Positions 5,227-33,026 of a stretch of DNA of 64,000 bases are shown here, piece after piece. Positions within the stretch are counted from its first letter, which is position 1, and every line of letters begins with the position of its first letter. The notes under the pieces are model-generated. The model saw nothing but the letters and a program-made list of their open reading frames with translations. It had not been told where the DNA came from and did no database searches. Origin of the DNA: Gemmatimonadales bacterium (lineage in GTDB: Bacteria > Gemmatimonadota > Gemmatimonadetes > Gemmatimonadales > GWC2-71-9); the NCBI GenBank assembly GCA_041577295.1, contig JBFGJG010000002.1, positions 103,039 through 167,038 of the forward strand, in the 5' to 3' direction. The position numbers were made by a program, and so were the translations under genes.

Positions 5227-5233
5227 ACAACGA

Positions 5234-10384: not shown

Positions 10385-10442
10385 GGATTCGTTCACAGTC
10401 GCTTCAGCCACCCATAAACGGACCCCGAATAGTCTTCACACT

Positions 10443-14643: not shown

Positions 14644-14789
14644 GCCCGTTAAGCCGCCTTCATAAACCGGCCACACCGGCTTCATAAACGCCCCGCATAA
14701 TTCCACGAGGTTTGTGTGGGGTGGCTCGTATTGTCCCTTGTTGACGGCCTCCGCACCGCATTCGCCGCATCAACTGGAGTTGTCAAGCG

Positions 14790-15221
14790 ATGGACAGTCG
14801 ACTGTTTGCTTGTGTACTGCTCGCGACCATCACCGGTGCTGGTTGTACTGGCAATGCTGAGATGGGAAATGCGCAAGAGCGGAGCGGCGACGAGGGCGCA
14901 CGCTCTGCTGTTGCGGCGGAAGCACCGCCAAGCGGGCCCGTAAACCAGGAGATGGTGCAAAGAGGTGCACAGCTCTTTCAATCGAAGGGCTGCATTGGTT
15001 GCCACACTATTGGTAAGGGTCGCTTGACGGGACCAGATCTATCAGGTGTGACCGAGCGTCGAGATTACACCTGGATCATGGCCATGGTGATCAACCCCGA
15101 TTCCATGCTCAAAAACGACGCGACGGCACGAAAACTCCTTGCTGAGTACATGACCCCTATGATGAATGTTGGCGTGACGCGGGAAGAGGCACGCGCAATC
15201 TACGAGTACCTCCGTCAATAG
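14790..15221 (+). CDS. Lipoprotein-type monoheme c-type cytochrome, likely electron donor to NosZ
   Basis: Lipobox LLATITGAGC. Heme motif CIGCHT. 64 nt upstream of nosZ on the same strand. Confidence 0.75.
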   Translation: MDSRLFACVLLATITGAGCTGNAEMGNAQERSGDEGARSAVAAEAPPSGPVNQEMVQRGAQLFQSKGCIGCHTIGKGRLTGPDLSGVTERRDYTWIMAMVINPDSMLKNDATARKLLAEYMTPMMNVGVTREEARAIYEYLRQ

Positions 15222-15285
15222 TACGGAGGGGGTTCGGCTGCCTTGGCGTGGCGTGACGGCACCCCATCACAACGGAGTAATCTCA

Positions 15286-17247
15286 ATGCGATCGAATCGA
15301 ATCTTGGGAATCGTTACCGCGGCTGCTGTGGTCGCGCTCGTGACAGTCGCTGGGCTTCAGTCGTGTGCAGGACCTGGAGCGACCGCGGATGTCGGATCGA
15401 TTGCTCGGGCACGGGGCTTGAGCGACGCAGATGTCGTTGCAGCGGTCAAGACTTACCAACCGACCGGGCGCACCGACGAGTACATCCTGTTTGCATCAGG
15501 AGGTCACTCGGGTCAGGTGTTGGTAATCGGTGTGCCGTCGATGCGCCTGCTCAAGGTAATTGCGGCGTTCACGCCTGAGCCGTGGCAGGGCTTCGCCTAC
15601 GGCGCGGAAGAACACAAGGCGCTCATGGCCAATGCGCGCATGTCAGATCACGACATCACATGGGGTGACACCCATCACCCCGCGCTGTCCGAAACCGACG
15701 CGGATTATGACGGGCAGTTCCTGTTCATCAACGACAAGGCGAACCCCCGCATCGCCGTCATCGACCTGCGTGATTTTGAGACGAAGCAGATCGTGACGAA
15801 TCCCAATATGGGAACCAATCACGGCGGCGCGTTCGTCACCCCGAATACCGAGTATATCATCGAGGGTGCCCAGTACTCGGTGCCTTTGTGGGTGGACTAC
15901 GCCGACGTCGACCGGTACAAGGAGGACTATCGGGGTTTGGTCACAATGTGGAAGTTCGACCGCGAGCGTGGCCGTATCGATGAGGGCCGGTCCTTCTCGA
16001 TCGAATTGCCCCCGTACTGGCACGACCTCGCCGACGCGGGTAGGGGTCCGTCGGCCGGCTGGGCGTTCCTGAACTCCTTCAATACCGAGATGGCCACGGG
16101 TGGAATCGAGGCTGGCAATCCGCCGTTCGAAGCTGGTGCCTCACAGAACGACATGGATTACCTCCACGTCATCAACTGGCAACTGGCGGAGCAGGTCGCT
16201 GGCCAAGCGGGGAAGACGCGCATGGCCCGGGGGCAACGGGTGATCCCGCTGCAAACCGCAATTGACGAGGGAATCTTGTTCTTCATCCCCGAGCCCAAGA
16301 GCCCACACGGCGCCGACGTGACTCCAGATGGCCGATACCTCATCGTCTCCGGCAAGCTGGACCCGCACGTCACGGTGTACTCCTGGGAGAAGATTCAGCA
16401 GGCGATCGAGGACAAATCGTTCAGCGACACCGATGCGTACGGTGTGCCCATCATAGATTTCAATTCGGTCATTGATGGACAGCTCGAGGTTGGGCTCGGC
16501 CCGCTGCACACGCAGTTTGACGGTGAGGGCAACGCCTACACGAGCATCTTCTTGGACACCAAGGTCACGAAGTGGAGTCTGAATCCGCTTCAAGTGGTCG
16601 ACCAGATCGACGTACACTACAATGTTGGTCACCTGGCAGCGGCCGAGGGTGATACCCGCTCGCCAGATGGTAAGTACCTCATCGCGATGAACAAGTGGTC
16701 GATCGATCGATTCAACGATGTCGGACCACTGCTGCCCCAGAACTTTCAGCTGATCGACATTACTGGTGACGAGATGCAGCTGCTCTACGACATGCCGATC
16801 GGTATCGGTGAGCCGCACTACGCACAAATGATCAAATCCGACAAACTGCAACCGTTCCGCGTCTATCCGCAGATCGGATACGATCCCGGCATCATGGGTC
16901 CGGCGGAGCATGCTGTCCAGGCTGGCCAAGAGGGCATCGTGCGGCGTGGAAACGAAGTGACCGTTCGTATGACGGCCATCCGCAGCCACTTCACGCCCGA
17001 GTACATCCGCGTGCGGCAGGGCGATCGGGTCACGATACACATTACCAGCACTGAGCAGGCGCACGACGCCACGCACGGCTTCGGCATCACTAAGTACAAC
17101 ATCAACCTGAGCCTCGAGCCAGGTGAGTCGCAAACGGTCACGTTTGTCGCTGATCAGGCCGGGGTTTTCCCGTTCTACTGCACCGAGTTCTGCTCGGCGC
17201 TTCACCTCGAAATGACGGGATACTTGCTAGTCGAGCCGCGCGGCTAA
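15286..17247 (+). CDS. nosZ: Nitrous-oxide reductase NosZ, clade II (Sec-dependent) type
   Basis: C-terminal CuA motif HGFGI...CTEFCSALHLEM. Long His-bearing propeller region. N-terminus MRSNRILGIVTAAAVVALVTVAGLQSCAG has no twin-arginine motif. GGAG lies upstream of ATG 15286. Confidence 0.95.
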   Translation: MRSNRILGIVTAAAVVALVTVAGLQSCAGPGATADVGSIARARGLSDADVVAAVKTYQPTGRTDEYILFASGGHSGQVLVIGVPSMRLLKVIAAFTPEPWQGFAYGAEEHKALMANARMSDHDITWGDTHHPALSETDADYDGQFLFINDKANPRIAVIDLRDFETKQIVTNPNMGTNHGGAFVTPNTEYIIEGAQYSVPLWVDYADVDRYKEDYRGLVTMWKFDRERGRIDEGRSFSIELPPYWHDLADAGRGPSAGWAFLNSFNTEMATGGIEAGNPPFEAGASQNDMDYLHVINWQLAEQVAGQAGKTRMARGQRVIPLQTAIDEGILFFIPEPKSPHGADVTPDGRYLIVSGKLDPHVTVYSWEKIQQAIEDKSFSDTDAYGVPIIDFNSVIDGQLEVGLGPLHTQFDGEGNAYTSIFLDTKVTKWSLNPLQVVDQIDVHYNVGHLAAAEGDTRSPDGKYLIAMNKWSIDRFNDVGPLLPQNFQLIDITGDEMQLLYDMPIGIGEPHYAQMIKSDKLQPFRVYPQIGYDPGIMGPAEHAVQAGQEGIVRRGNEVTVRMTAIRSHFTPEYIRVRQGDRVTIHITSTEQAHDATHGFGITKYNINLSLEPGESQTVTFVADQAGVFPFYCTEFCSALHLEMTGYLLVEPRG

Positions 17248-17258
17248 CAGCGGCGGCT

Positions 17259-17324
17259 CCCATCACCCGTTACCGCCTTTTCACAGGCTCAAGAGCCTGT
17301 GGGAAGGCGGTGGCGGGTGATGGG
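17259..17324 (+). promoter_or_regulatory. Long imperfect stem-loop between nosZ and nosB (intra-operon attenuator or mRNA-stabilising element)
   Basis: CCCATCACCCG/TTACCGCCTT/TTCACAGGCTC-aa-GAGCCTGTG/GGAAGGCGGT/GGCGGGTGATGGG. About 28 paired positions in three helical segments. Starts 12 nt after the nosZ stop. No U-tract follows. Confidence 0.5.
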
Positions 17325-17347
17325 TCGCTAGCGAGATACTACACGAC

Positions 17348-17953
17348 ATGGACAAACTGACATCATTCTTTCAGGGACAGCTTTCGCCGCTCAGTCGGAT
17401 CCTGATGGTGGCGGCGACTTTAGCGCTGTTGCCCACTGTCCTGCTCCCTACGTGGAATATCACGCTCAAGGCTCCGCAATATCCTCAGGGGCTGGAGCTC
17501 ACGATTTATCCCAATACGGTTGCCGGCGATATCAGAGAAGTGAATCTCCTGAATCACTACATTGGAATGGATGAGATCGAGCCAAACGAATTTCCGGAGT
17601 TTCGGTTCATTCCGTTCTTCATCCTTCGCTTTTTTGGCTTCGCGTTGCTGGCAGCGCTGATTGGCCGCATGCCCATCGCGGCGTTGGGATGGATGGACTT
17701 CGTACTCTTTGGCGTTGTGATGCTCTACACAATGCAGCACTGGTTAGCAGAGTATGGCCAGAATCTCGCTCCCACCGCGCCTCTGAAAATCGAACCGTTT
17801 ACGCCCCAATTCATCGGCAACACGGCGATCGGACAGTTCAGCGTATCCAGCTGGCCGGGGTCGGGAGCCATCTTAATGGCGGTTGCAGGTCTGATCGGCC
17901 CCGCGATCGTGCTCTATGAATGGCGACGCATGCGGCAGGTGGCCGCCGCGTGA
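17348..17953 (+). CDS. nosB: Four-TM membrane protein in the nosB position of clade II nos clusters
   Basis: 201 aa with four predicted TM helices and a roughly 60-aa loop after TM1. It lies immediately downstream of nosZ, and its stop overlaps a GTG in the nosD frame (GTGA at 17950-17953). Confidence 0.55.
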   Translation: MDKLTSFFQGQLSPLSRILMVAATLALLPTVLLPTWNITLKAPQYPQGLELTIYPNTVAGDIREVNLLNHYIGMDEIEPNEFPEFRFIPFFILRFFGFALLAALIGRMPIAALGWMDFVLFGVVMLYTMQHWLAEYGQNLAPTAPLKIEPFTPQFIGNTAIGQFSVSSWPGSGAILMAVAGLIGPAIVLYEWRRMRQVAAA

Positions 17954-19302
17954 TCAGTTTAATATTCGCCGCACTCGTGCAGGCCCAAGCGGTGACGGTA
18001 CCCGTTGGCCCTGGCCACCTGTACACATCCATCACCGACGGTCTCGCCGCAGCGACGGTTGACGATACCGTGCTCGTGGCACCGGGCGTCTATCACGAGC
18101 ACATCCAAATCACCAAGCCCATCGTTCTCCGCGGTCGCCCTGGCGCTGTCATCGAGGGTGACGGGCGCGGGACCGTCATCACCGTCATGGCACCGTCGGT
18201 CATCTCCGGGTTCACGATCCGCGGCTCCGGCAGCGAGCAATATCGAGAGCACTCAGGAGTGCTGGCTCAAGCGGCGCACGGTCTCGTCGTCGAAGACAAC
18301 GAGATTGAGGATGTTCTCTTCGGGATCTACGTCAAGCAGAGCGACAGCGTGATCATCCGGCGGAACGTCATTGTTGGCAAACGGCTAGCCACTCCACTCA
18401 GGGGGGACGGGATTCGACTGTGGTATAGCAACGGAGCCCTGGTCACAGACAACGAGGTCGAGCGAACGCGCGACTTGGTTGTCTGGTTCTCGAACGACGC
18501 GACGATCCGCCAAAACGTTGTACGCGATGGGCGTTACGGGCTACACTACATGTACAGTCACCGTAATGTCTTCGAGGAGAACCGGTTCTTAGGTAATCAG
18601 GTGGGGGCTTTCATCATGTACTCGGCGGATATCGTATTCCGCCGAAACCTCTTTGCGGACGCGCGAGGTACGACAGGAAGAGGGTTGGGTTTCAAGGACG
18701 CCGACCGAATCACCGCGACCGAGAACACCCTCGTGAAGAATGCCATCGGAATCTCGATCGATAACTCTCCACAAAGCGCTGGTGCTCGCAACGTTTTTCG
18801 TAACAACCTGATTGCTTACAACGACATGGCGGTGTCCATGCTGCCGTCCGTTCATAGCAATGTGTTCGAAGACAACGCCTTCGTCGACAATGTGCAGACG
18901 ATCAGCGTTTCTGGAGGAGGAACAGCCCTCGCCAACAACTGGCGTGGAAACCACTGGAGTGACTACGCAGGCTTCGACGCAAACCACAACGGGTATGGCG
19001 ACACCCCCTTCAGCGTGGAACGGCTGTCGGACGACCTCCTCGACCAACACGAAGCGCTGAGAATACTGAACCTGAGCCCCGCACTCGCGTTGGTGAACAC
19101 GCTGAGCCGCGTGCTGCCGTTCCTGGCACCCGAGCCCCTCGTGATCGACTCGATCCCGCGACTACAGCGGTACACGCTCGGTGACGCCGCCAAGCCTGGC
19201 ACTCAGAACGCTCCAGGGGCAGCGGCCGGATTCGCGGTAACAGCGGTGCTCGCTGGGCTGTGCGCGTTTTGGCTGCGACGCCCGCTCCGAGAGACCCAAT
19301 GA
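17920..19302 (+). CDS. nosD: NosD, periplasmic right-handed beta-helix protein for CuZ assembly
   Basis: Repeated parallel beta-helix units (GIYVKQSDSVIIRRNVI, DGIRLWYSNGALVTDNEV, GLHYMYSHRNVFEENRF, GAFIMYSADIVFRRNLF, IGISIDNS...). C-terminal hydrophobic helix GFAVTAVLAGLCAFWL. Start could be 17920 or the coupled GTG at 17950. Confidence 0.85.
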   Translation: MATHAAGGRRVISLIFAALVQAQAVTVPVGPGHLYTSITDGLAAATVDDTVLVAPGVYHEHIQITKPIVLRGRPGAVIEGDGRGTVITVMAPSVISGFTIRGSGSEQYREHSGVLAQAAHGLVVEDNEIEDVLFGIYVKQSDSVIIRRNVIVGKRLATPLRGDGIRLWYSNGALVTDNEVERTRDLVVWFSNDATIRQNVVRDGRYGLHYMYSHRNVFEENRFLGNQVGAFIMYSADIVFRRNLFADARGTTGRGLGFKDADRITATENTLVKNAIGISIDNSPQSAGARNVFRNNLIAYNDMAVSMLPSVHSNVFEDNAFVDNVQTISVSGGGTALANNWRGNHWSDYAGFDANHNGYGDTPFSVERLSDDLLDQHEALRILNLSPALALVNTLSRVLPFLAPEPLVIDSIPRLQRYTLGDAAKPGTQNAPGAAAGFAVTAVLAGLCAFWLRRPLRETQ

Positions 19303-20204
19303 TCGTCGCACGCGGTCTCGCCAAGCAGTACGGCCGGCAGCGGGTGCTGGACGCCGTCGATCTGAACATCGACCAGGGCGAGCGGGTTGCCCTCGTCGGC
19401 CTCAACGGTGCGGGCAAGACCACGCTGATCCGGTGTCTCCTCGGGCTCGTGCCGTTCGAGGGAGACTTGCGCATCGCTGGTTACGACGTGCGCAAGGAAG
19501 GACGTGCCGTGCGTCGCTCCCTGGGCTACGTACCCCAACGGGCTCCCTACTTTGATGGCCGGCTCTCCGAGGTCATCGCGTTCTTCGCATCTCTTCGAGG
19601 TGTCGCCTTTGAGGCCGTCACGGCACGACTCACCTCACTCGGGCTGTCGCTCGTCGAACACGGTGACAAACAGATGCGAGAGCTATCCGGCGGCATGCTC
19701 CAGAAGGTGCTACTCGCTCTGGCATTGGACGGTGACACGCCCGTGCTACTTCTCGACGAGCCGACGGCCAACCTCGACCCCAGAGCGCGCGCAGAGTTCC
19801 TACGCAGCCTCGGACCAATCGACGACCAAAAAACGGTCGTCCTGGCATCGCACCGACTCACCGATGTCCAAGCGGTCGCGAAGCGCCTGATCGTGTTGCA
19901 TGGTGGATCAATTGTGTTTGACGGAAGCGTGGCGGCACTCTGGGAGCGAGTAGGAGCTACGCAGACGCTCTGGGTCCGGGTCCCGCCCGAGGCGCGAGAT
20001 CCGCTCGGTGAGCGTCTCCGAGCCCGCTTCCGGCAGGGGATGGTCGTTGCGAACGGATCGGCGCTTGGTATACCCGTCGCGGATGGCGCGGGCGTCGATG
20101 TGCTCGTTGAGTTGCGTGAGTCCGGCATCCACGTGGAAGACTTCTGGACCGAAAGCCCTTCCCTACAGAACGTCCTCGAGCACCTGCTCGGTGAGAACGT
20201 ATGA
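19299..20204 (+). CDS. nosF: NosF, ABC transporter ATP-binding protein
   Basis: Walker A GLNGAGKTT, signature LSGGMLQKV, Walker B LLLDEPTANLD. ATG overlaps the nosD stop (ATGA). Confidence 0.85.
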   Translation: MIVARGLAKQYGRQRVLDAVDLNIDQGERVALVGLNGAGKTTLIRCLLGLVPFEGDLRIAGYDVRKEGRAVRRSLGYVPQRAPYFDGRLSEVIAFFASLRGVAFEAVTARLTSLGLSLVEHGDKQMRELSGGMLQKVLLALALDGDTPVLLLDEPTANLDPRARAEFLRSLGPIDDQKTVVLASHRLTDVQAVAKRLIVLHGGSIVFDGSVAALWERVGATQTLWVRVPPEARDPLGERLRARFRQGMVVANGSALGIPVADGAGVDVLVELRESGIHVEDFWTESPSLQNVLEHLLGENV

Positions 20205-21019
20205 TGACCACCGCCACACTCTTCGTCCGACGAGAGGTCGCGACCGCGCTTCGGACCCGATGGTTCCTGATCTACTCGGCCATCTTCCTCGTAAGTGGAA
20301 TCCTGCTCGTCAGTCTCGGGAATCTCAACGTCGCGCTGTACGGGTACCGGGGATTTGCGAAAGCGTTTGCCGGTCTAGTGCATCTTGCGATGCTCTTCGT
20401 GCCGGTGATGGCGCTTCTCCCGGCGACCGCGACGATTGCCGAAGAACGAGAGAGTGGAGCGCTGGAGTATCTGCTCGCCCAACCGGTCAGCTTTGGTCAG
20501 GTCTTTTTTGGAAAGTGGGCGGGAGTGAGTGTGGCAGTGCTCCTTGCCTTGATCGTGGGGTTCGCCGCGGCCGGCGCAGTCGCCGTGCTTCGAGGCGTGC
20601 CACCGGCGCTGATCATCACCCTGTTCGGATTCGTGATCCTGCTGGCGCTCGCATTCGTGGCCCTGGGCCTATGCATTTCGGCCATCGCATCGGCACGGGC
20701 TCAGGCTGTTACGTGGGGGCTCATTGCATGGTTGGCGCTCGTCGTGCTGAGCGGCCTCGGCGTCCTCGTCGCTTTCGTCCGCTGGGGAATCTCCGAGCGT
20801 CTGCTCGTGCTGTGGACGTTCATCAATCCCACCGAAGCCTTCCGCATTGGGATTGTCACCGTTTTGGATCCCGATCTGAGCCTGCTCGGCCCTCTGGGGG
20901 CGAATATTGTCGAACGGCTCGGCGCCGGGGGAACGGTGGCACTCACAGGACTGACGCTCACCGCGTGGATCGTCCTCCCAGGTCTTGTCGGCTGGCTGGT
21001 GTTTCGACGGGCGCGGTAG
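20201..21019 (+). CDS. nosY: NosY, ABC-2 type permease
   Basis: 272 aa with six TM segments. ATG overlaps the nosF stop. Position is canonical for nosDFY. Confidence 0.8.
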   Translation: MMTTATLFVRREVATALRTRWFLIYSAIFLVSGILLVSLGNLNVALYGYRGFAKAFAGLVHLAMLFVPVMALLPATATIAEERESGALEYLLAQPVSFGQVFFGKWAGVSVAVLLALIVGFAAAGAVAVLRGVPPALIITLFGFVILLALAFVALGLCISAIASARAQAVTWGLIAWLALVVLSGLGVLVAFVRWGISERLLVLWTFINPTEAFRIGIVTVLDPDLSLLGPLGANIVERLGAGGTVALTGLTLTAWIVLPGLVGWLVFRRAR

Positions 21020-21094: not shown

Positions 21095-23383
21095 ATGCCA
21101 AACTTTCAGATCATGAGACCGGATGCCCCGGCGACCATGTTTGCCGCGGTCATCATGTGTGTATCGGTGGGTTGTGGATCGACCAGTCAACCGGTGAGTG
21201 AACCTGCGCCCCAACCGCCAGTCCCAACGCCGGTCGGCGCGCCGGCTGCGCAGGGCGACTCACTTTCGGTCACCACCGGGCGCCAACCGCCGGCAGCGCC
21301 CCTCGCCACGGATCTCGACACGGTCAAAGCTGGGCGCTTTGACAACGGAAAGATGTGGACCTTTGAGTACCCGCCGCTCGAGTATTTCGCTGAGACATAT
21401 GCGTTCAGTCCAGACTCCGCGTGGTTCGCCCGCGCGCGTCTTGGCGCGCTTAGGCTCCCTAATTGCTCTGCCTCGTTCGTTTCGCCCCACGGCCTCGTTC
21501 TCACAAATCATCACTGCGCCAGAGAGAGCGTCTCCGAGGTTTCGAACCCAGGGGAAGAGCTACTGGACAGAGGCTTCTATGCCCAGTCGGTCGATGCAGA
21601 GCGCCGGGCCGAGACGCACGCCGACCAACTCATCGCGATTCGTGACGTCTCGTCGGAAATTGAGTCCGCACTCATGGGGATCCTCGACGATTCCGCACGG
21701 GTCCGCGCCCGCGAGGAGGCGATGGAAGCCATCGAGGCTCGGATCCTGTCGGAGCACGGTGGAGAGGACAGTGGCCACGTTGTGGAGGTCATTTCATTGT
21801 GGGACGGAGCAAAGTATTCGGCCTACATCTTTCGACGATATCACGATGTTCGCCTCGTGCTCGCCCCCGAACTGCAAATCGGGTTCTTTGGCGGCGATCC
21901 GGACAATTTTACATTCCCCCGGTACAACCTCGATATGTCGTTCTACCGCGTGTACGGGGATGATGGTCAGCCGTTGAAAACGGACGTCTACTTCCCATGG
22001 AGCAGGGACGGCGTTCGCGGAGGCAACGCAGTCTTCGTCATCGGCAATCCCGGATCCACGAATAGACTCCAGACCGTGGCCCAGCTGGAGCTCCGGCGCG
22101 ATGTCCTCGACAAAGGCATTCTGGGCTTTGTGAGAAGTCGGGCGGACGCGCTCCAAGAGTTTGCCGATCGCCATCCGGCTGCAGCCGAGGAGCTCGACCT
22201 TCGGAACACGATTTTCAGCCTGCGGAACTCGCAAAAGGCCTACCAGGGAATGTGGGAAGGACTCCGCGACCCCATCATCATGGCAAAGCGTGTCGACAGT
22301 GAACGGCAGTTTCGCGCAGCGATCACCAACGACCCCGAGCTGCGTGCGAAGTACGGTGACCTGCTCGATCAGATGGCAGAAGTTCAGCGGCAAAAGCGAG
22401 AGCTGGCGTCAGATTTTCATGCCTTCCTAGCAATGGGAAACCCGTCATACACGTCCACGACGTTGCTGCGCGGATTCAATGCCTTTCAGTATCTGTCTGC
22501 CCAACAGGGTGGCGCACCACCGGAGGCGCTCACCGAGCTCGAGGGTGAACTGCTGGCAATCGAGGATCAGCCCCGCGAAATGCAGACGGCTCTGCTCGCC
22601 GCTCGGCTCGATGACATCGCACAGGCCTTCGGCAAAGATGATCCGATGGTAACCTCGCTCTTGCGTGGCCGGTCCCCATCAACTGCTGCCGAGCAAATCG
22701 TATCGCAATCGGTTCTCAGTGATTCAGCTAGAACAGCCGCGGCACTCGAGGGCGGAACGCTCACCATGAACGACCCGGCGCTTCGGATGATCATGGCGTT
22801 TCTCCAACGATTCGTGGCCTATCAAGGGCGATTTGGCTCGCTGCTCGAACGGGAAGGTGAGCTTGCCAACCGCCTAGGACGAGCTCGCTTCGATGTGTAC
22901 GGTACCAAGATCCCACCTGATGCCACCTTTTCCCTGCGCATCGCCGATGGCGTGGTCCGAGGATACGACTACAACGGGACGATGGCACCGACCCACACTA
23001 CGTTTTACGGACTGTACGATCGGTTCTACGGACATGACGGAAGCGAATGGGAACTGCCTAACAGATGGCTCAGTCCCCCGGCGACCTTCGACCTCTCGAC
23101 GCCACTGAACTTCGTGCTGACCGCCGATATCATCGGAGGAAACTCCGGTTCGCCGGTGATCGACCGTGACCTCCGTTTGGTCGGGCTGATTTTCGATGGG
23201 AATATCGAAAGCCTGCCGGGGGATTACATCTACGATCCGCGCGCGAACCGGGCCGTCGCGGTAGACGCCCGTGGGATCTTGGAGGCGCTCGACGACATCT
23301 ACGACGCAGACCGAATCGTCCTCGAGCTGACCACGGGGCGGTTAGCTCGAACCGAGGCAGAGGCGGACGCGGCGATGCGATGA
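21095..23383 (+). CDS. S46-family dipeptidyl-peptidase (DPP7/DPP11-like serine protease), lipoprotein
   Basis: Lipobox VSVGCGS. Catalytic His region SFVSPHGLVLTNHHCA. Catalytic Ser region IGGNSGSPVI. Size of 762 aa is typical of the family. Confidence 0.85.
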   Translation: MPNFQIMRPDAPATMFAAVIMCVSVGCGSTSQPVSEPAPQPPVPTPVGAPAAQGDSLSVTTGRQPPAAPLATDLDTVKAGRFDNGKMWTFEYPPLEYFAETYAFSPDSAWFARARLGALRLPNCSASFVSPHGLVLTNHHCARESVSEVSNPGEELLDRGFYAQSVDAERRAETHADQLIAIRDVSSEIESALMGILDDSARVRAREEAMEAIEARILSEHGGEDSGHVVEVISLWDGAKYSAYIFRRYHDVRLVLAPELQIGFFGGDPDNFTFPRYNLDMSFYRVYGDDGQPLKTDVYFPWSRDGVRGGNAVFVIGNPGSTNRLQTVAQLELRRDVLDKGILGFVRSRADALQEFADRHPAAAEELDLRNTIFSLRNSQKAYQGMWEGLRDPIIMAKRVDSERQFRAAITNDPELRAKYGDLLDQMAEVQRQKRELASDFHAFLAMGNPSYTSTTLLRGFNAFQYLSAQQGGAPPEALTELEGELLAIEDQPREMQTALLAARLDDIAQAFGKDDPMVTSLLRGRSPSTAAEQIVSQSVLSDSARTAAALEGGTLTMNDPALRMIMAFLQRFVAYQGRFGSLLEREGELANRLGRARFDVYGTKIPPDATFSLRIADGVVRGYDYNGTMAPTHTTFYGLYDRFYGHDGSEWELPNRWLSPPATFDLSTPLNFVLTADIIGGNSGSPVIDRDLRLVGLIFDGNIESLPGDYIYDPRANRAVAVDARGILEALDDIYDADRIVLELTTGRLARTEAEADAAMR

Positions 23384-23395
23384 AACTGCCTCAGA

Positions 23396-24214
23396 CTAGT
23401 TGACTCTCGGATTCGGATATGCCGGAATCTTGACCAGACCGGGAACGCCAAACACGCGGGACAGGCCGAATACGACCCCGATGTTCGCTGCGCCTCTTCC
23501 CCACTCGTCCAGGCGGGCAGTGACGCCGAGGTCTATCACCGAGACGTTGGTGATCTGAAGCCGGGTCCCAACCTCGAACCACACCCGCGCATCGCTACGA
23601 TCCGTGGGCACCTCGAGATATAGATCTCCCAGGATGGACTTGCTGAAGAGACCGATGGGAAAATCAAATCCCAAACCCGAGATCCAATACGCGCCGCCAT
23701 CGATGTCCGAGGCGATTGCGTAGCCGCCATTCAGGTGAAGGCGCAGGCGGCTCAGACTCTTCGTTTGAATGGCGAGTAGCTCCAGCCCAACATCTTCCCG
23801 CCTCACGTCACCTATCCCCGGTGCCAATAGGGTCGTACGAAAGGCGACCGCCGGTGCCGAACGACCCTCCTGATTCACGTTGAACAACAGGTGGGTGCTG
23901 AACTCTTCAACACCTCCCGACGCCGCCCCAGCCACACGCTCCCATGCAGGGTGAGCTTCGACGCCAAACTGGAGGTTCCGCGCGATGCCAACCTTGAGCT
24001 CCAGCACCCCGGTGGCACCTCGACGGCCCCCCTCTGCCACAAGGAACTCGCTTCCCAGTTCCCACTCCCATTCCAGGAATTTCAGCGGATACGCGTCCTC
24101 GACCCGAATGGGCCGCCCGGCATCGACCGAGCGGAAATCCTCCTGAGCCAGCACCGAAACCTGAAACCCCGTAAGCATGACACCCACCGCCGTCAGCCGT
24201 AAGAGCATCGTCAT
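23396..24214 (-). CDS. Putative outer-membrane beta-barrel protein (MetA/transporter-like), unknown substrate
   Basis: Signal peptide MTMLLRLTAVGVMLTGFQVSVLAQE. Alternating amphipathic strands throughout. Start set at ATG 24214, 1 nt after the upstream gene stop, with GAGGAAAGG upstream. Confidence 0.5.
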   Translation of the reverse strand: MTMLLRLTAVGVMLTGFQVSVLAQEDFRSVDAGRPIRVEDAYPLKFLEWEWELGSEFLVAEGGRRGATGVLELKVGIARNLQFGVEAHPAWERVAGAASGGVEEFSTHLLFNVNQEGRSAPAVAFRTTLLAPGIGDVRREDVGLELLAIQTKSLSRLRLHLNGGYAIASDIDGGAYWISGLGFDFPIGLFSKSILGDLYLEVPTDRSDARVWFEVGTRLQITNVSVIDLGVTARLDEWGRGAANIGVVFGLSRVFGVPGLVKIPAYPNPRVN

Positions 24215-24215
24215 C

Positions 24216-25274
24216 TCAGCGCCTTTCCTCATGCGGACGTTGGTGATCTCCATGCTCCATCGCAGGCATGGACGCGTCCGGGTGACCCTGAGGCAGCCAG
24301 CGGCCATCGGCTAACTGCGTCGGAACCGTCATTGCAGCCATCGGCATGTGTGCGTGCGCGGACGCCGGAAGCGGCGGCGCGATCACCCATTCCTGATTCG
24401 CATACACCATTTGCCGCAGCATCCGGTCGATTTCACTTCCTTTGGCAGATCGTGAAATGCGCTCGTCCGCCATGATGTCGTTCACCACGTCATGCATCAT
24501 GTGGAGGTTGTCGAAGATGTGAGCGGCAGCCGGAAACAACGCACCAAAGCGGGGGGCAACCTCGGCGGTGAGCGGCATGTACGTGGGAGGATCCGCGAGG
24601 ACCGAATCCGTGAACACGCGGATCACTCGGTCGAGTTGGCGTCTGCGTAGAGTCGAGTCTGGCTCCAACAATGCTTCGTAGACAGCCGCGTGGTGCCAGT
24701 GATACGCCCACAGGATGCCGTTGATCTCTGGGTACTTCCGCGCGAACCGTTCCGCCCATGTGCCTCCGGCGAGCATGAACGCGTGCCCGTATCCGCGCGT
24801 GGAAAAGGCGGAGTGGGCGTTGGAGAGATAGTAGGCGATAGCTCGCTCACCAGCGGTCTTCTTGTCCAACACTCGGTCATCGGACAGAATGTCGTACAAC
24901 TGCGAATGCAGCATGTGTGTCCAGTCCATCGCCGCACCCGTTCGGTACGCTACCTTGGCCCAGTTCGGCGCGATGATCTCTGCAGGCGGCTCGAACTTCG
25001 GCGGGTTGGCAACGTATTCGCGAATTTGCCTCGCAAGCGCCCTCATGGCGGCCGAGTCGTTGGGACCTCGCTGTAGTAAGACCTCGTAGACCCCGAAATG
25101 CGCAAAGTGCGCGGCGTAGAAACTCCTGGCCGCGTTCGGGTACTCTTGGTAGAACACAAAATTGTAGGAGGCCGGCAGCCGGTACTGACCGTTACGTTGA
25201 ACGATCTGGGCTTGGGCCGACACTGCAGCGCAGCACATTACACCCACCACGGTGCCCAGGGAAAATCTCCACAT
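24216..25274 (-). CDS. Secreted helical protein of unknown function with His-rich helices and a Met/His-rich C-terminal tail
   Basis: Signal peptide MWRFSLGTVVGVMCCAAVSAQAQ. His-bearing motifs HFAHF, YHWHH and HIFDNLHMMHD. Tail is ASAHAHMPMAAM...HPDASMPAMEHGDHQRPHEERR. No family recognised. Confidence 0.6.
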   Translation of the reverse strand: MWRFSLGTVVGVMCCAAVSAQAQIVQRNGQYRLPASYNFVFYQEYPNAARSFYAAHFAHFGVYEVLLQRGPNDSAAMRALARQIREYVANPPKFEPPAEIIAPNWAKVAYRTGAAMDWTHMLHSQLYDILSDDRVLDKKTAGERAIAYYLSNAHSAFSTRGYGHAFMLAGGTWAERFARKYPEINGILWAYHWHHAAVYEALLEPDSTLRRRQLDRVIRVFTDSVLADPPTYMPLTAEVAPRFGALFPAAAHIFDNLHMMHDVVNDIMADERISRSAKGSEIDRMLRQMVYANQEWVIAPPLPASAHAHMPMAAMTVPTQLADGRWLPQGHPDASMPAMEHGDHQRPHEERR

Positions 25275-25332
25275 TGTCGCAACGACTCCTTAACGAGACT
25301 AAGAGTTCAAATGCCTGTTGCGGAAACTCGTG

Positions 25333-25719
25333 TTAGGCGATGTCTCGGGGAGGTGGATTTGGAGGTGTGATCACCCTCGAGGTGGGACTCACCGTGAGAG
25401 ATTGCGGTCGGGTGAGATGATCGGATGGTGTACCGCGCGATACGCTGATGCTAAGCAGTTGCCCCACGCCGCTACAGGACGGCGCGACCATGCAGTTGTC
25501 CAACCCACAGTGTGCACAGCCGCGCTCCTGCCCAGGAACCAAGCCGGCTGCGGCGGAGGCGGAATGGGTGTGTGCCAGCTGACGTTCCAGGTGGCACTCG
25601 CTCTCGGGCGCGGCCCGTCGATCGATCGACGCGGTGGCACCTTGAGAGGGGAACAGTAGCACACCCGCGAACAGAGCGGTGACCCGCTGGAGGCGCCGAA
25701 TACGGCGTGAGGAACGCAT
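25333..25719 (-). CDS. Possible small secreted Cys/His-rich protein (DUF2946-like pattern?)
   Basis: N-terminus RRIRRLQRVTALFAGVLLFPSQGATA looks like a signal peptide. Core is ECHLERQLAHTHS...CAHCGLDNCMVAPSC. C-terminus is proline-rich (PPNPPPR). By my hand count GC3 is only moderate, and no clear SD is present. Two other overlapping frames also stay open. Confidence 0.35.
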   Translation of the reverse strand: MRSSRRIRRLQRVTALFAGVLLFPSQGATASIDRRAAPESECHLERQLAHTHSASAAAGLVPGQERGCAHCGLDNCMVAPSCSGVGQLLSISVSRGTPSDHLTRPQSLTVSPTSRVITPPNPPPRDIA

Positions 25720-25779
25720 GACAAGCAGAAGATTACGCCGATCGAGGTGGCCGCGGTAGGTCCCCTCCTATCCCTCTAT

Positions 25780-25814
25780 CCCTTCTATCCCCTCTTGGAG
25801 AGGGGATAGAAGGG
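25780..25814 (-). terminator. Strong hairpin just downstream of the glnA-1 stop (terminator-like, no U-tract)
   Basis: CCCTTCTATCCCCTCT-tgg-AGAGGGGATAGAAGGG, 16 consecutive base pairs. Lies 12 nt after the glnA stop at 25826. Confidence 0.45.
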
Positions 25815-25825
25815 GCGGGGCTGAA

Positions 25826-27304
25826 TCACACGTCGTAGTACAGGAAAAACTCGTAGGGATGAGGACGGAGCGCCATCGGACCACACTCCTTGTGGCGCTT
25901 GTACTGCAGCCAGGTCTCAATGACATCTCTGGTAAACACGCCCCCTTCCATCAGAAAGTCGTGATCGCTCCCAAGGGCATCGAGTGCTTCGTTCAACGAT
26001 CCCGGGGTATTCTTGACCAGCATGCGGTCCGCCGGATCGAGCTCGTAAAGGTCTTTGTCGATAGGGGCCGGCGGCTCGATGCGATTGCGGATCCCATCGA
26101 GTCCGGCCATCAACAAGGCTGCAAAGGCCAGATAGGGATTGCAGGATGGGTCCGGTGCGCGAAACTCGATCCGCTTCGACTTTGCCGAGTCGCTGTAAAC
26201 GGGGATGCGGCAGATGGCACTGCGGTTCCGTTTTGAGTACACGAGATTGATAGGGGCTTCGTACCCAGGAACCAGCCGACGATATGAGTTCGTCGTGGGC
26301 GCTACCAGCGCCAGCAGCGCAGGCGCGTGCCGCAACAGCCCCCCGATGTAGAACCTCGCGGTCTCCGAGATCAATCCGTAGCCGTCTGCTGCATAAAAGA
26401 GGTTCTGCTCGTCCTTCCACAAGCTCTGGTGCACATGCATCCCCGATCCGTTATCTCCAAACAGCGGCTTTGGCATGAACGTGGCCGTGTAGCCATGCGC
26501 GTTGCAGACGTTCTTGACGATGTACTTGTACATCATCACCTGGTCCGCCATTCGCACCAACGTGTTAAATCGCATGTCGATCTCGGCCTGACCCGCCGTA
26601 CCAACCTCGTGGTGCTGCACTTCCACCTCGACGCCAGAGTCCTCGAGTGCCAGCATGATCCGTGACCGCAGATCTTGCATCTTGTCCAACGGGGGAACCG
26701 GGAAGTACCCCTCCTTGTGTCGCGGACGGTGAGCGAGGTTCGGCTGCCCGCCGTCGCGACCGGAATTCCAGATGCCTTCCTCCGCATCGATGTGGTAGTA
26801 GCCTTCGTGGGCGTTTTGGTCGAACCTGACCGAGTTGAACGCGTAGAACTCCGCCTCCGGACCCCAGTAAGACGTCGTTGCGATCCCGGACTTCACGAGA
26901 TAATCCTCGGCCTTGCGCGCGATGAACCGTGGATCACGACTGTACTGCCTTCCCGTGGTGGGGTCGACGATGTCGCACACCAGAACGAGCGTCGGGACTT
27001 CCAAGCAGGGATCCACAAATGCGGAGGAGGGATCCGGCATGAGCAGCATGTCGCTTTCGTGGATCGCCTGAAACCCGCGAACGCTCGAGCCGTCGAAGCC
27101 GAGGCCCTCCGCAAACAGATCTTCTGTGAGTGCCCGCGCCGGGATGGAGAAGTGCTGCCACTGACCGGGAAGGTCGCAAAAACGCACATCAACCACTTTG
27201 ACGCCGCTCTCCCTCGCCTTACTGACCACGTCGGCGGCGGAAGACGACGGGGTCGGGTCCAGTTTGAGGCCATCCGATGCTTTCGGCGGCATTGTCGCGG
27301 TCAT
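25826..27304 (-). CDS. glnA: Glutamine synthetase type I (beta-subtype-like), copy 1
   Basis: [61 protein letters not shown], and a Tyr-containing loop KDLYELDP at the adenylylation-loop position. Start set at ATG 27304, preceded by AAGGAG. The tracked start at 27388 adds 28 unsupported residues. Confidence 0.9.
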   Translation of the reverse strand: MTATMPPKASDGLKLDPTPSSSAADVVSKARESGVKVVDVRFCDLPGQWQHFSIPARALTEDLFAEGLGFDGSSVRGFQAIHESDMLLMPDPSSAFVDPCLEVPTLVLVCDIVDPTTGRQYSRDPRFIARKAEDYLVKSGIATTSYWGPEAEFYAFNSVRFDQNAHEGYYHIDAEEGIWNSGRDGGQPNLAHRPRHKEGYFPVPPLDKMQDLRSRIMLALEDSGVEVEVQHHEVGTAGQAEIDMRFNTLVRMADQVMMYKYIVKNVCNAHGYTATFMPKPLFGDNGSGMHVHQSLWKDEQNLFYAADGYGLISETARFYIGGLLRHAPALLALVAPTTNSYRRLVPGYEAPINLVYSKRNRSAICRIPVYSDSAKSKRIEFRAPDPSCNPYLAFAALLMAGLDGIRNRIEPPAPIDKDLYELDPADRMLVKNTPGSLNEALDALGSDHDFLMEGGVFTRDVIETWLQYKRHKECGPMALRPHPYEFFLYYDV

Positions 27305-27426
27305 GAGCGGTCTCCTTGCTCTGTAAAGACGCCGGGCCGACCCAGCAGAGTGGGGCGACCCGGCGGTCGGTCCATAGGTGTCCAGCAACGCACGGCTGAA
27401 GCTATTGGTCGCCTGTCATGGTGTCA

Positions 27427-29689: not shown

Positions 29690-31159
29690 ATGCTGGACAT
29701 CCAGAACTACATCGGTGGCGAGTTAATCCCGCCTCAATCAAAGGCGTATCTCGACAACGTGGAGCCGGCGACGGGGCAGATCTACTCCCGTATCCCCGCG
29801 AGCGATGCCAGAGATGTCGAGCGTGCCGTGCAGGCAGCGGAAGACGCGTTTGCCGGCTGGTCGCGCGCGCCGGTGGAGGAGCGATCACGCATCCTGTTGC
29901 GCCTCGCGGACCAAATCGAGTGCCGGCTCGACGAGTTCGCCCACGCCGAGTCGGTCGACACGGGGAAACCGCTGTCCCTCGCTCGGTCAGTCGACATCCC
30001 CAGAGCGGTGAAGAACTTTCGGTTCTTCGCGACCGCCATCATGCACTTTCGGTCCGAGGCGCACGCCACCGACTACGCCGCGCTCAACTATACACTGCGA
30101 CGTCCGCGCGGCGTCGCGGGGCTCATCTCGCCGTGGAACCTCCCTCTCTACCTCCTGTCGTGGAAGGTCGCGCCGGCAATCGCCGTCGGAAATACGGCCG
30201 TGGCAAAACCGTCGGAACTCACCCCGATGACGGCTTTTAAGTTGAGCGAGTTGGCCATCGACGCAGGCTTACCACCCGGTGTCCTGAACATTGTTCATGG
30301 CACGGGACCCGATGTCGGGGAACCCATCGTACTCCACGAGCACGTGGCGACGATCTCGTTCACTGGAGGGACCGCCACTGGCTCGCGCATTGCATCGAAG
30401 GCGGCGCCAATGTTCAAGAAGCTGGCACTGGAGCTCGGTGGGAAGAACCCCAACATCGTGTTTGCCGACGCTGACCTGGATGAAGCGTTGGAGGGAAGCC
30501 TCCGGGCCGCGTTCGCGAATCAGGGTCAGGTCTGTCTCTGTGGATCTCGCGTGTTTGTGGAGCGCCCGGTCTTCGAGACATTCCTCGAGCGATTTGTCGC
30601 CGGAGCACGTGCGTTGAAGATCGGCGATCCGCTCGATGAACACACGCAGCAGGGCGCGGTCGTGTCACGCGCGCACTTCGAAAAAGTGATGCACTACGTC
30701 GAACTCGCGCGCGAAGAAGGTGGTGAGATCCAGTGTGGCGGCGGCGCGCCGACAGATCTCCCCGAGCGATGCAAAGACGGTTTCTTCGTTGAGCCAACCG
30801 TGGTGACGAACCTTGGCGTCAACTGCCGTACCAACCAGGAGGAAGTATTTGGCCCATTCGTCACCGTGATGCCGTTCGAGTCCGAGACACAAGTAGTGGA
30901 ATACGCCAACGCGACTCCCTACGGTCTCTCGGCATCTCTCTGGACGCAAAACCTTTCACGGGCTCATCGCGTGGCTGAAGGTCTACAAAGCGGCACGGTC
31001 TGGGTGAACTGCTGGCTCCTGCGGGATCTGCGTGTGCCCTTCGGTGGCATGAAGCAGAGTGGGGTGGGCCGCGAGGGAGGCGAGGAGGCGCTCCGGTTCT
31101 TCACCGAGCCAAAAAACGTCTGTGTGCAGGTCCCAGGGTTGGGTGGGCCGTCGCGGTGA
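29690..31159 (+). CDS. Aldehyde dehydrogenase, likely 2-aminomuconate-6-semialdehyde dehydrogenase
   Basis: ALDH motifs ELGGKNP and catalytic-Cys region GQVCLCGSR, plus FTGGTATG. Function inferred from coupling to RidA and the adjacent kynurenine/ACMSD genes. Confidence 0.75.
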   Translation: MLDIQNYIGGELIPPQSKAYLDNVEPATGQIYSRIPASDARDVERAVQAAEDAFAGWSRAPVEERSRILLRLADQIECRLDEFAHAESVDTGKPLSLARSVDIPRAVKNFRFFATAIMHFRSEAHATDYAALNYTLRRPRGVAGLISPWNLPLYLLSWKVAPAIAVGNTAVAKPSELTPMTAFKLSELAIDAGLPPGVLNIVHGTGPDVGEPIVLHEHVATISFTGGTATGSRIASKAAPMFKKLALELGGKNPNIVFADADLDEALEGSLRAAFANQGQVCLCGSRVFVERPVFETFLERFVAGARALKIGDPLDEHTQQGAVVSRAHFEKVMHYVELAREEGGEIQCGGGAPTDLPERCKDGFFVEPTVVTNLGVNCRTNQEEVFGPFVTVMPFESETQVVEYANATPYGLSASLWTQNLSRAHRVAEGLQSGTVWVNCWLLRDLRVPFGGMKQSGVGREGGEEALRFFTEPKNVCVQVPGLGGPSR

Positions 31160-31578
31160 ACCGGCCACCGGCTGACACGACGAGTACACGCGCTCCGGAA
31201 CCCGTGGGAGCGTTTCCCCATGCTCGGCGGGTCGGCAACTTCCTTTTCCTGTCGGGGATGGGCCCACGAAAGCGTGGTCACACGGATATTCCGGGTGTGA
31301 CGTTGAGCGCCGCGGGAGAGGTGGTGTCCTACGACATCGAAATACAATGCCACGCGGTATTCGAGAACATCCGAATGGTGCTCGAGGATGCCGGTTCAAG
31401 CTGGGAGCGGATTGTTGACGTGACGGTGTTCCTCACCGACATGCAAAGAGACTTTGCGACGTTCAATCGGCTCTACGCTGAGTACTTTGTCACCAACCGT
31501 CCCACACGCACCACGGTGGAAGTAGGCCGGCTTCCCACACCGATCGCCATCGAGCTGAAAGTGATTGCGACGGTCTGA
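31156..31578 (+). CDS. RidA/YjgF-family deaminase, likely 2-aminomuconate deaminase
   Basis: 140-aa YjgF fold (FLFLSGMG...VTVFLTDM...RPTRTTVEVGRLP). GTG start overlaps the ALDH stop (GTGA). Confidence 0.7.
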   Translation: MNRPPADTTSTRAPEPVGAFPHARRVGNFLFLSGMGPRKRGHTDIPGVTLSAAGEVVSYDIEIQCHAVFENIRMVLEDAGSSWERIVDVTVFLTDMQRDFATFNRLYAEYFVTNRPTRTTVEVGRLPTPIAIELKVIATV

Positions 31579-31582
31579 GAAA

Positions 31583-32200
31583 TCAGAGCGTGCGCAGCAC
31601 CGCCCTCACGGGACTGGCATCGAATCCCACCAGTCGAAGCGGCAGCGCGATGAGCTCATAGAGACCCTCAGGAACGTTGTGCAGCACGAGACCCTCGAGA
31701 ATCGTGATGTCGTATTTCACGCACGCCTTGTGTGCTCGTAGATCCTTGGACGTGCTCGGATCCACGCTCGGCGTGTCGATCCCGACTAGGGTGACCTCTA
31801 GCCGGTTGAGATGCGCAATGGCGTCTGGCGTGAAAGCGGCGAAATCGTCGTTCCAGTCAGTTGGATCGGGAAAGGTGCCGGTGGCAATCAACACGCGAGG
31901 CGCTCGCACCCGTTCGCCAATCAACTCAGGTGTGATCAACTTCCCGCGCGGGACGCTCACCCGGATCACCTGGCACGGTCCCAGGTAACGCTGCAGATCG
32001 ACCTCGTCCACCGATGGTGCCGCTGCACTGATGTGGCTCGGCGCATCCGTGTGTGCTCCAATGTGGACGGTCGAGTGCACGCTCGAAAGCGTCAGGTGAT
32101 CACCTGCCGCCAACTCCAGCAGCACTTCTCGAGACAACGGGGTATCGCCTGGAAAGACGCTGCTATTCGCCGAAACGGGTGGAGAGATATCGTACAACAT
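31583..32200 (-). CDS. kynB: Kynurenine formamidase (cyclase family)
   Basis: Metal-binding motif HIGAHTDAPSH, N-terminal DISPP...FPGD, 205 aa. Last gene of the minus-strand operon. Confidence 0.8.
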   Translation of the reverse strand: MLYDISPPVSANSSVFPGDTPLSREVLLELAAGDHLTLSSVHSTVHIGAHTDAPSHISAAAPSVDEVDLQRYLGPCQVIRVSVPRGKLITPELIGERVRAPRVLIATGTFPDPTDWNDDFAAFTPDAIAHLNRLEVTLVGIDTPSVDPSTSKDLRAHKACVKYDITILEGLVLHNVPEGLYELIALPLRLVGFDASPVRAVLRTL

Positions 32201-32203
32201 GGG

Positions 32204-33025: not shown

Positions 33026-33026
33026 T

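Follow-up and report, generated by a model that had tools for sequence, protein, structure and literature searches.

Between a glutamine synthetase gene (glnA) and a convergent S46 peptidase gene, the 64,000-nucleotide (nt) stretch of Gemmatimonadales bacterium DNA analysed here (contig JBFGJG010000002.1; the window) carries three genes at positions 23396-25719 whose products have no Pfam or NCBIfam match. What do these genes do, and do they serve the nos cluster that lies near them? An initial annotation made from the sequence had proposed an uncharacterised envelope system that handles copper, possibly acquiring or buffering it for NosZ. The idea of a copper-handling envelope system gains ground from a CutF-like leader, from CopB/CopA ATPase operons and CusA-like, MerR, CopCD and DUF305 neighbours of related modules, and from a cupredoxin-like fusion; its link to NosZ fares badly. 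With moderate confidence, we read the three genes as a self-contained operon that handles copper, or possibly another soft transition metal, from the periplasm to the outer membrane, with detoxification as its most likely purpose.

The module is read on the minus strand of the window, its open reading frames (ORFs) being taken from an ORF list and from comparison with relatives. The relatives form the subfamily of the window module and a sister subfamily that is 33-39% identical to it. The features of the module are the following:

25333-25719, minus strand: predicted CutF-like leader or sensor ORF of 128 amino acids (aa), from the ORF list; conserved ahead of the module in both subfamilies (38 distinct loci)
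25630-25719, minus strand: signal-peptide-like N-terminus of the leader (MRSSRRIRRLQRVTALFAGVLLFPSQGATA, then S), read by eye from an Arg-rich n-region, a hydrophobic core and an A-x-A site (ATA, then S)
25474-25596, minus strand: Cys/His cluster of the leader, C42...H...H...C-A-H-C-x4-C-x5-C, from alignment A5
25345-25365, minus strand: C-terminal Pro-rich motif of the leader, PPP[R/K/Q] 2-5 residues before the stop in 38/38 leaders
25275-25332, minus strand: leader-to-HEL spacer of 58 nt with an AAGGAG ribosome-binding site at 25286-25291; a predicted hairpin pairs the Shine-Dalgarno sequence (SD) and the AUG
24216-25274, minus strand: HEL (our name), a 352-aa secreted helical protein of a new family, from the ORF list, its homologs and an AlphaFold 2 (AF2) model
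25209-25274, minus strand: HEL signal peptide (...AVSAQA, then Q), from by-eye reading of the sequence
24375-25169, minus strand: four tandem helix-hairpin repeats of HEL (residues 36-104, 105-172, 173-240 and 241-300), from hhalign
24219-24371, minus strand: Met/His-rich C-terminal tail of HEL (residues 302-352), a conserved M-x3-AM-x-VPT-x-L-x-DG-x-WLPQGHP segment followed by a variable tail
23396-24214, minus strand: barrel ORF of 272 aa, a predicted outer-membrane 12-stranded beta-barrel, from the AF2 model and Foldseek
24080-24145, minus strand: conserved mature N-terminal segment of the barrel before strand 1, QEDFRsvDagRPIRVEDAYP, nearly invariant in alignment A2 and present also in fused proteins

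The three co-directional ORFs are real and as the initial annotation had described them, every residue string that it quoted being present. The ATG of the barrel gene is indeed found 1 nt past the HEL stop codon and translation of the barrel is probably coupled to that of HEL. Protein P0121 of the deposited assembly has the same 272 residues as the window barrel. The small upstream ORF is uncalled in that assembly; it is considered real because it is conserved in relatives of both subfamilies.

HEL is an uncharacterised protein that founds a new family. A word-indexed search yielded 191 relatives with 58-80% identity, all of them unnamed proteins of Gemmatimonadota, and an exhaustive profile search of 1.84 billion representatives gave at least 407 clusters at 50% identity (E-value up to 1e-3), nearly all from the same phylum. 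Gemmatimonadota also provide 79 of the best 80 HEL loci, and both search motifs occur in at least 218 of 185,579 species genomes. The AF2 model is all-helical (predicted local distance difference test, pLDDT, 88; predicted template modelling score, pTM, 0.84). Its comparison to the PDB with Foldseek returned noise only (best E 0.19, template modelling score, TM, < 0.2). Sequences of the PDB were also searched for module proteins, singly and through profiles A2 (barrel), A4 and A5 (leader), and no meaningful match was obtained. No known non-metal function is assigned to HEL by these structure and profile searches, Pfam and NCBIfam included. The earlier statement that none of the three proteins belongs to a characterised family stands for HEL; it has to be amended for the barrel, which appears to be a distant COG4313 type, and for the small ORF, which fits the CutF-like class.

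Sequence comparison indicates that the internal repeats of HEL are real. Alignment of the ~65-residue segments with hhalign gives 98% for the second and fourth repeats (E 6e-14), 97% for the first and third (E 2e-11) and 81-94% for the other pairs, a pattern that points to duplication of a two-repeat unit. Each repeat features the motif H-x2-H-x3-[Y/N]-[D/E], found as HFAHFGVYE, HMLHSQLYD, HWHHAAVYE and HMMHDVVND starting at residues 56, 120, 192 and 258, respectively. Eleven His, including all those of the motifs, are invariant in 36 HEL homologs, together with E64, D128, E200, D255, D262 and D266. The Met/His-rich tail pointed out in the initial annotation is significantly enriched, with 11 Met and His in 51 residues compared to a background of 4.35% in 26 window proteins (binomial P 1e-5), and the tails of 226 family members show the same enrichment, with averages of 9.9% for Met and 6.3% for His (16% for both). 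Long GMQHG-type or HDHDH runs are found in some relatives, and residues 341-352 of the window protein are modelled with pLDDT < 50. Tails rich in Met are a usual feature of Cu(I)/Ag(I) sites. A metal-binding chemistry of HEL is plausible from these features.

The company kept by HEL domains provides further indications. Many homologs have a lipobox Cys at the position of the signal peptide instead (alignment A1), and distant relatives are fused to a C-terminal DUF2231 domain, to SnoaL-like domains or to a pyrroloquinoline quinone (PQQ) propeller. One relative, P0333, carries a cupredoxin-like domain (28.8 bits for a cut-off of 27). Because of these fusions and of the signal peptides or lipoboxes, the HEL domain is placed in the periplasm, among redox and copper proteins. 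The C-terminal regions of P0236, P0259, P0381 and P0384 have DPxVxxRIxxDPxLxxLWxDPxVQxxL repeats after a Met/His-rich linker; such repeats are common in proteins of the sister subfamily and give a weak match to the STI1/HOP DP domain profile.

The barrel has 99 relatives in Gemmatimonadota and its fold is predicted with confidence, the AF2 model showing 12 strands (pLDDT 84). The closest structures found by Foldseek are FapF (E 2e-7, TM 0.60-0.65) and the COG4313 channel Pput2725 (4rl8; E 2e-6, TM 0.62). The PF13557 (Phenol_MetA_deg) profile gives weak matches to 7 of 27 barrel homologs at E < 0.1 (best 5e-7) and relatives in which the barrel is fused to the helical domain score 23-25.5 bits (cut-off 22), while the window barrel has no match at E up to 1. 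Structure prediction and these profile hits identify the barrel as a putative, distant 12-stranded channel of the COG4313/Phenol_MetA_deg type. The segment that precedes strand 1 lies in a low-confidence region of the model (pLDDT < 50 at residues 16-35); the equivalent N-terminal segment of Pput2725 occludes the channel lumen (PMC4493636). A conserved Pro-rich extension, VPxYPNPRI, ends the protein. A barrel profile search against solved chains, PcoB included, found no match and PcoB is absent from the top 50 Foldseek matches of the barrel.

Related loci were gathered with HEL alignment A1. The barrel gene adjoins the HEL gene in about 80 of 93 loci, and in every locus of which both ends are present the two are neighbours, the barrel gene being downstream of HEL in the subfamily of the window and upstream in the sister subfamily. 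In P0231, P0239 and P0403 they form one polypeptide composed of an N-terminal barrel, a Pro-rich linker and the helical domain as a C-terminal domain of 300 aa. Because of this adjacency in essentially all loci and of the fusion in three relatives, HEL and the barrel are expected to work together, as one functional unit. The initial annotation had made its proposal depend on synteny in other genomes, and adjacency of the two genes is kept across the 93 loci and in both subfamilies. One Longimicrobiales genome (OZ252253.1) has two copies of the pair: the first (L035 or L050 in our set, both from this sequence) overlaps the end of a resistance-nodulation-division (RND) pump gene with a DD motif in transmembrane helix 4 (TM4), and the second stands alone near PQQ dehydrogenase genes.

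The small ORF that precedes the pair has a signal-like N-terminus followed by the pattern ..ESECH..HTH..CAHCGLDNCMVAPSC.. and terminates in PPNPPPRDIA. In 17 aligned leaders of both subfamilies (alignment A5) three Cys are invariant within a C...C-x-H-C-x3-4-C-x4-5-C cluster, accompanied by a signal-like N-terminus, a His-rich stretch and a C-terminal PPxPPP[RKQ]. An upstream ORF of the same strand that ends in PPP[RK] plus 0-4 residues is present in 30 of 48 loci of the window subfamily compared to 0.5% of all ORFs; the leaders of the sister subfamily, recovered by clustering of neighbour genes, are upstream of the barrel gene and end in PPPQ. In the window 58 nt separate the leader from the next gene; among the 38 loci this distance is nearly always 41-86 nt, with a single case of 140 nt.

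Such an organization is that of CutF-like leaders. The rules that define these exported proteins (PMC9973294) call for a signal peptide, a length below 150 aa, PP among the final 15 residues and, on the same strand, a downstream gene after a spacer of less than 1000 nt, mostly less than 100 nt. The window ORF agrees with this definition in its 128 aa, its ...TPPNPPPRDIA end, its Cys and His residues and its 58-nt spacer, and a signal-like N-terminus is recognised by eye in it and in its homologs alike. Function of CutF requires the equivalent C-terminal proline motif; when copper binds during export the ribosome pauses for longer, and a stem-loop that covers the ribosome-binding site of the following gene is thereby opened (PMC9973294). 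Leaders of this class that contain Cys go with copper homeostasis genes downstream, while His-only leaders go with Ni/Co genes; not every one of them is copper-specific (PMC9973294). From its sequence, the small ORF is a CutF-like leader of predicted function. Small ORFs of ~100 aa without a Pfam match also occur in the metal islands of relatives (L002 1593-1901, L008 5268-5582, L001 5649-5957), where they precede OEP/RND genes or adjoin MerR; they might be further CutF/CzcI-like leaders.

The spacer RNA of the window folds with a minimum free energy of -20.2 kcal/mol into a structure that pairs the SD and the AUG. The pairing probability of its SD is 0.86 compared to 0.65 in shuffled sequences, 6% of which reach 0.86. 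More telling are nine loci of the sister subfamily, where the barrel gene SD forms a helix with the last codons and the stop of the leader. In their alignment 93% of the cells of this anti-SD helix are paired, compared to 24-47% when the 3' partner is slid. Compensatory changes are found in 4 of the 10 pairs (a UAG stop goes with CUAGGAG, a UGA stop with UCAGGAG) and the covariation score is reached by none of 500 shuffles. The same stop-proximal design, built from different sequences, is found in locus L006, whose HEL is 80% identical to that of the window, and in the Palauibacter group. The covarying anti-SD pairing provides comparative support in relatives for a predicted RNA switch.

The identity of the metal is suggested by neighbouring genes. 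They were compared over 10 kb in 86 distinct loci, 40 of the sister subfamily and 46 of the window subfamily, by tblastn and motif typing of the matches. In the sister subfamily 16/40 loci have metal genes and 13/40 a typed P1B ATPase. Ten of these 13 ATPases combine CPH in TM6 with a His-rich N-terminus, the signature of P1B-3 CopB (PMC5552934), and nine of the ten are encoded 6-800 nt downstream of the module on the same strand. Locus L067 illustrates this arrangement with the order leader, barrel, HEL, CopB (CPH, YN-x4-P, MSLST) and MsrA, separated by 61, 6, 133 and 81 nt. By our own rough estimate, a random 20-kb stretch would hold such a metal gene ~1-3% of the time, a genome having no more than a few of them among several thousand genes. 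The gene for MsrA (methionine sulfoxide reductase) directly follows the CopB gene of this operon (L067 13443-13979).

The loci of the window subfamily that have such genes, six in all, include L006, L008 and L016. The order in L006 is CusB-like, CusA-like, P-II and CopB, then SnoaL, leader, HEL and barrel; its P-II-like gene (4925-5275) lies between the CusA-like pump and CopB. A Cus-like pump, MerR and a protein with an HMA domain are found in L008, MerR and an HMA ATPase in L016, DUF305, a BlaI/CopY-family regulator and CopC-CopD in L013, and an HMBD-type fusion protein and ArsR in L011. L013 and L075 have DUF305 genes next to the module. The TM4 motif AIGAM[IV]DAAIVMIEN, which we take to be that of CusA-type proteins, is found in pumps that adjoin the module in L006, L008, L047, L059, L086 and L092. 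The neighbouring pumps of L011, L075 and L079 have DGA or DGG motifs that are not CusA-like. A Cus/Czc-like identity was considered for the RND pump encoded immediately before the module in L002, and the DD motif in its TM4 led us to drop it as metal evidence. When all neighbours are clustered, the main families common to both subfamilies are RND pumps, P-type ATPases, membrane-fusion proteins and OEP; a two-component kinase and regulator pair recurs at lower counts. A copper link of the module is supported by these neighbours and by the fusions described above.

For the working of the putative copper operon we infer metal binding, metal specificity, direction of transport, docking of HEL on the barrel and the sign of regulation. 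The leader would be exported and its Cys/His cluster would bind periplasmic copper during export. The copper-bound leader would lengthen the pause of the ribosome at the C-terminal PPNPPPR, and the paused ribosome would keep open the RNA structure that otherwise masks the ribosome-binding site and start codon of the second gene; the structural genes would be translated only when copper is present in the periplasm. In HEL, the H-x2-H-x3-Y-D/E motifs of the repeats would face inward, 6-8 conserved His and four carboxylates composing a multi-metal site, while the flexible Met/His tail may capture Cu(I)/Cu(II). HEL would dock on the periplasmic face of the barrel, with which it forms one polypeptide in some relatives, and copper would cross the outer membrane through the barrel. 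The pair might act as the outer-envelope partner of the inner-membrane CopB/CopA ATPases, functionally like PcoA/PcoB and built from unrelated proteins. A more specific proposal, which we advance tentatively, is that HEL represents a new class of periplasmic metalloproteins, a Cu(I) oxidase or relay downstream of CopB with a four-repeat His/carboxylate multi-copper site and a Met/His tail, docked on or fused to the barrel, on a new copper route through the outer membrane controlled by a CutF-type switch.

Several observations weigh against the copper operon. Recognisable metal genes are found within 10 kb in only 6/46 loci of the window subfamily, the strong association being that of the sister subfamily, and near the window module CopA, CopB, Cus and MerR genes are all absent. 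The RND pumps that neighbour the module in L002, L035, L045, L072 and L089 have the DD motif in TM4 and were not counted as metal genes; we assume this motif to be that of AcrB-type pumps for hydrophobic compounds and drugs. Channels of the COG4313 family are otherwise tied to hydrophobic substrates. When leaders were compared with the Pfam DUF2946 profile (PF11162), the best E was 0.21, given by 2 of 17 leaders, and that of the window gave no match. The z-score of the window hairpin is -1.25, not significant for one sequence of 79 nt. Across all 38 loci the SD pairing is 0.63 compared to 0.60 in shuffles (P 0.04), a marginal difference, and for the RNA switch the lineage-specific alignments alone carry weight.

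The proposal that the module acquires or buffers copper for NosZ assembly, in replacement of a missing NosL, is improbable. The nos cluster, with NosZ at 15253-17247 and NosD, NosF and NosY up to 21019, does end 2.4 kb from the module as had been reported, NosL was not found among the genes that flank nosZDFY, to which the search was limited, and NosZ needs a large copper supply. In other bacteria CutF-like leaders often precede nosZ or nosR (PMC9973294), and for PcoB a role in copper entry, as opposed to efflux, has been put forward (PMC9210255), transport being conceivable in either direction. On the other side, nosZ, nosD and nosY are absent within 10 kb from all 85 other distinct loci, and the NosZ-feeding idea thus rests on proximity. 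The module is transcribed towards the nos cluster from the opposite strand, in convergent orientation, with the S46 peptidase gene (21095-23383) between them. The module comes with a leader of its own and is set apart from glnA (25826-27388) by a perfect 16-nt inverted repeat (CCCTTCTATCCCCTCT/AGAGGGGATAGAAGGG, 25780-25814), which is found 12 nt past the stop of glnA and is probably the terminator of that gene. None of the three module proteins has NosL homology by Pfam or NCBIfam. Copper acquisition, as the initial annotation had it, is not favoured because the recurring neighbours are export and resistance genes.

The other explanations concern the metal, the barrel and its substrate. The module could handle a different metal (Zn, Co, Ni, Cd, Ag or Fe), or HEL could be a redox enzyme with a catalytic di-metal or haem site and an incidental tail. 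His and carboxylates on repeated helices resemble di-metal and bis-His sites in general, the PQQ dehydrogenase propeller and cupredoxin-like fusions suggest electron transfer, pumps with DGA/DGG motifs neighbour the module in L011, L075 and L079 and some CutF-like leaders are not specific for copper (PMC9973294). We regard this as unlikely in view of the adjacent ATPases, which are overwhelmingly of the CPH/His-rich or CPC/CxxC copper types, of the recurrence of CopCD, DUF305 and CusA-type pumps, of the Cys in the leaders, which in the CutF-like class accompany copper genes (PMC9973294), and of the general Cu(I)/Ag(I) character of Met-rich tails; a Cu(I) oxidase would be one form of the copper operon, not its competitor. 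The possibility that the barrel is a secretion pore, FapF-like or inverse autotransporter-like, which exports HEL or displays it on the cell surface, draws on FapF, a polypeptide transporter, being its best structural match, on the resemblance noted between the COG4313 fold and the post-cleavage state of autotransporters (PMC4493636) and on the order of barrel, Pro-rich linker and 300-aa domain in the fused relatives, which is that of inverse autotransporters. It is hard to reconcile with fusion of the helical domain elsewhere to periplasmic enzyme domains or to DUF2231, which Pfam describes as a 'predicted membrane protein' and which we interpret as an anchor in the inner membrane, and with the many homologs predicted to be lipoproteins; a folded helical domain of 300 aa would be unusual cargo for a pore of 12 strands, secretion accessory genes do not recur in the neighbour-gene clustering, and we give this explanation little credit. 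Least probable is uptake of a hydrophobic compound with HEL as a periplasmic binding protein or enzyme and a coincidental link to metal genes. It would account for the distant relation of the barrel to PF13557/COG4313, a family implicated in uptake of hydrophobic molecules (PMC4493636), for the adjacent RND pumps with the DD motif and for the SnoaL-like neighbours and fusions; catabolic genes do not recur near the module in the same clustering, and the CutF-like leader, the CopB operons, the cupredoxin fusion, the conserved His and the Met/His composition point to metal.

The leader resembles CutF of Rhodobacter capsulatus and CutF-like leaders of the DUF2946 class, and likewise CopL, CruR and CzcI, in being a short, putatively exported protein of less than 150 aa with a Sec-like N-terminus, a Cys/His cluster, a C-terminal Pro-rich motif with a basic residue, a short spacer to a same-strand gene for a secreted, presumed metal-homeostasis protein and, as predicted in relatives, an RNA helix over the ribosome-binding site (PMC9973294). 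It differs by its lack of a significant DUF2946 match, by a C-x-H-C-x3-4-C-x4-5-C cluster instead of a single CxxxC and by its downstream genes, HEL and the barrel, which take the place of a multicopper oxidase, an RND component or a TonB-dependent transporter. Copper switches translation on in the case of CutF and off in that of CruR. In the survey of CutF-like proteins (PMC9973294), Gemmatimonadota count as a minor phylum at best.

PcoA/PcoB (CopA/CopB of Pseudomonas and Caulobacter) are the closest functional analogue of the module: a periplasmic protein and a 12-stranded outer-membrane barrel encoded in one operon. In the Pco pair a disordered Met/His-rich segment is needed for copper resistance and other copper export genes are associated (PMC9210255, PMC12509749). 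The analogy has its limits, HEL being predicted as an all-helical protein of four repeats and PcoA being a three-domain multicopper oxidase, and the Met/His region being found on the C-terminus of HEL and not on the N-terminus of the barrel, which has only its 12 strands in common with PcoB. How copper crosses the outer membrane is disputed, both efflux and uptake having been argued for PcoB (PMC9210255, PMC12509749).

The barrel shares with the COG4313/Phenol_MetA_deg channel Pput2725 and with FapF a size of ~250 residues, 12 strands and a conserved segment before strand 1. It is set apart by the lack of a PF13557 match in the window protein, by its VPxYPNPRI extension, by its obligate pairing or fusion with HEL and by a context of metal genes, unlike the aromatic catabolism or amyloid secretion of those proteins. 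HEL can also be compared to CopM (DUF305), which we take to be a periplasmic helical copper-binding protein with Met/His sites, since it is secreted, helical, rich in His and Met and encoded with copper resistance genes; it is larger than CopM, has four repeats with the H-x2-H-x3-Y-D/E motif and has a barrel partner. Relatedness of HEL to DUF305/CopM was rejected, HEL having no Pfam match and a DUF305 neighbour, when aligned by hhalign to the family profile and to the single repeats, giving a probability below 1%. NosL/NosA have in common with the module the envelope location and, in this one genome, the vicinity of a nos cluster; homology is lacking, as is nos synteny elsewhere, and the module stands on the opposite strand behind an unrelated gene.

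To our knowledge, few types of periplasmic copper-detoxification proteins are known, namely multicopper oxidases, CusF, CopC and CopM. No description of the HEL family was found in the literature on PF13557 and copper or on copper resistance of Gemmatimonadota. The regulatory principle and the general logic of the system are already known, while the HEL family, its four-repeat His motif, its pairing or fusion with the barrel and CutF-like control in Gemmatimonadota appear to be undescribed. The module would bring together HEL, which has neither a Pfam family nor a similar solved structure, and a small barrel as a new pair that always occurs together, has a built-in regulatory leader and is clearly linked in genomes to CopB ATPases. 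With it, the known reach of translational copper sensing of the CutF type would come to include Gemmatimonadota and target genes of a new class. The module also offers a testable function for several hundred 'hypothetical proteins' of a phylum represented here mostly by metagenome-assembled genomes. If HEL is indeed a new class of metalloprotein, Gemmatimonadota would have a previously unknown copper route across their outer membrane. The locus is also a warning for annotation, nearness to a nos cluster being an unsafe guide to function.

The inverted repeat beyond glnA overlaps imperfect direct copies of GGGATAGA(A/G)GG (region 25762-25815) and has no T-run. An Rfam scan of 23000-26200 returned spurious miRNA-like matches on this hairpin and nothing else, and a consensus scan upstream of the leader found no sigma-70-type promoter. 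In the nos region (12866-21019) the genes code for a cytochrome c, a Porin_O_P-type porin, a second cytochrome c, NosZ, a 201-aa ORF without a Pfam match (17348-17953), NosD, NosF and NosY; NosR was not recognised beside the cluster either.

Farther away in the window, two tandem, overlapping genes for ZIP-family metal transporters (7352-8802, minus strand) are found beside a gene for haem-copper oxidase subunit I (5707-7329) and genes for two sensor kinases and a response regulator (8975-12511). On the other side of glnA lies a kynurenine-pathway cluster (29690-36700), its annotation seen through locus L009, with genes for tryptophan dioxygenase, an FAD monooxygenase, a cyclase and an aldehyde dehydrogenase and a kynureninase-like gene. 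An M50 peptidase with CBS domains is encoded just downstream of the module in its two closest relatives (L006 12679-13806 and L008 12105-13220); the homologous gene of the window is located at 1770-2894, 21 kb from the module.

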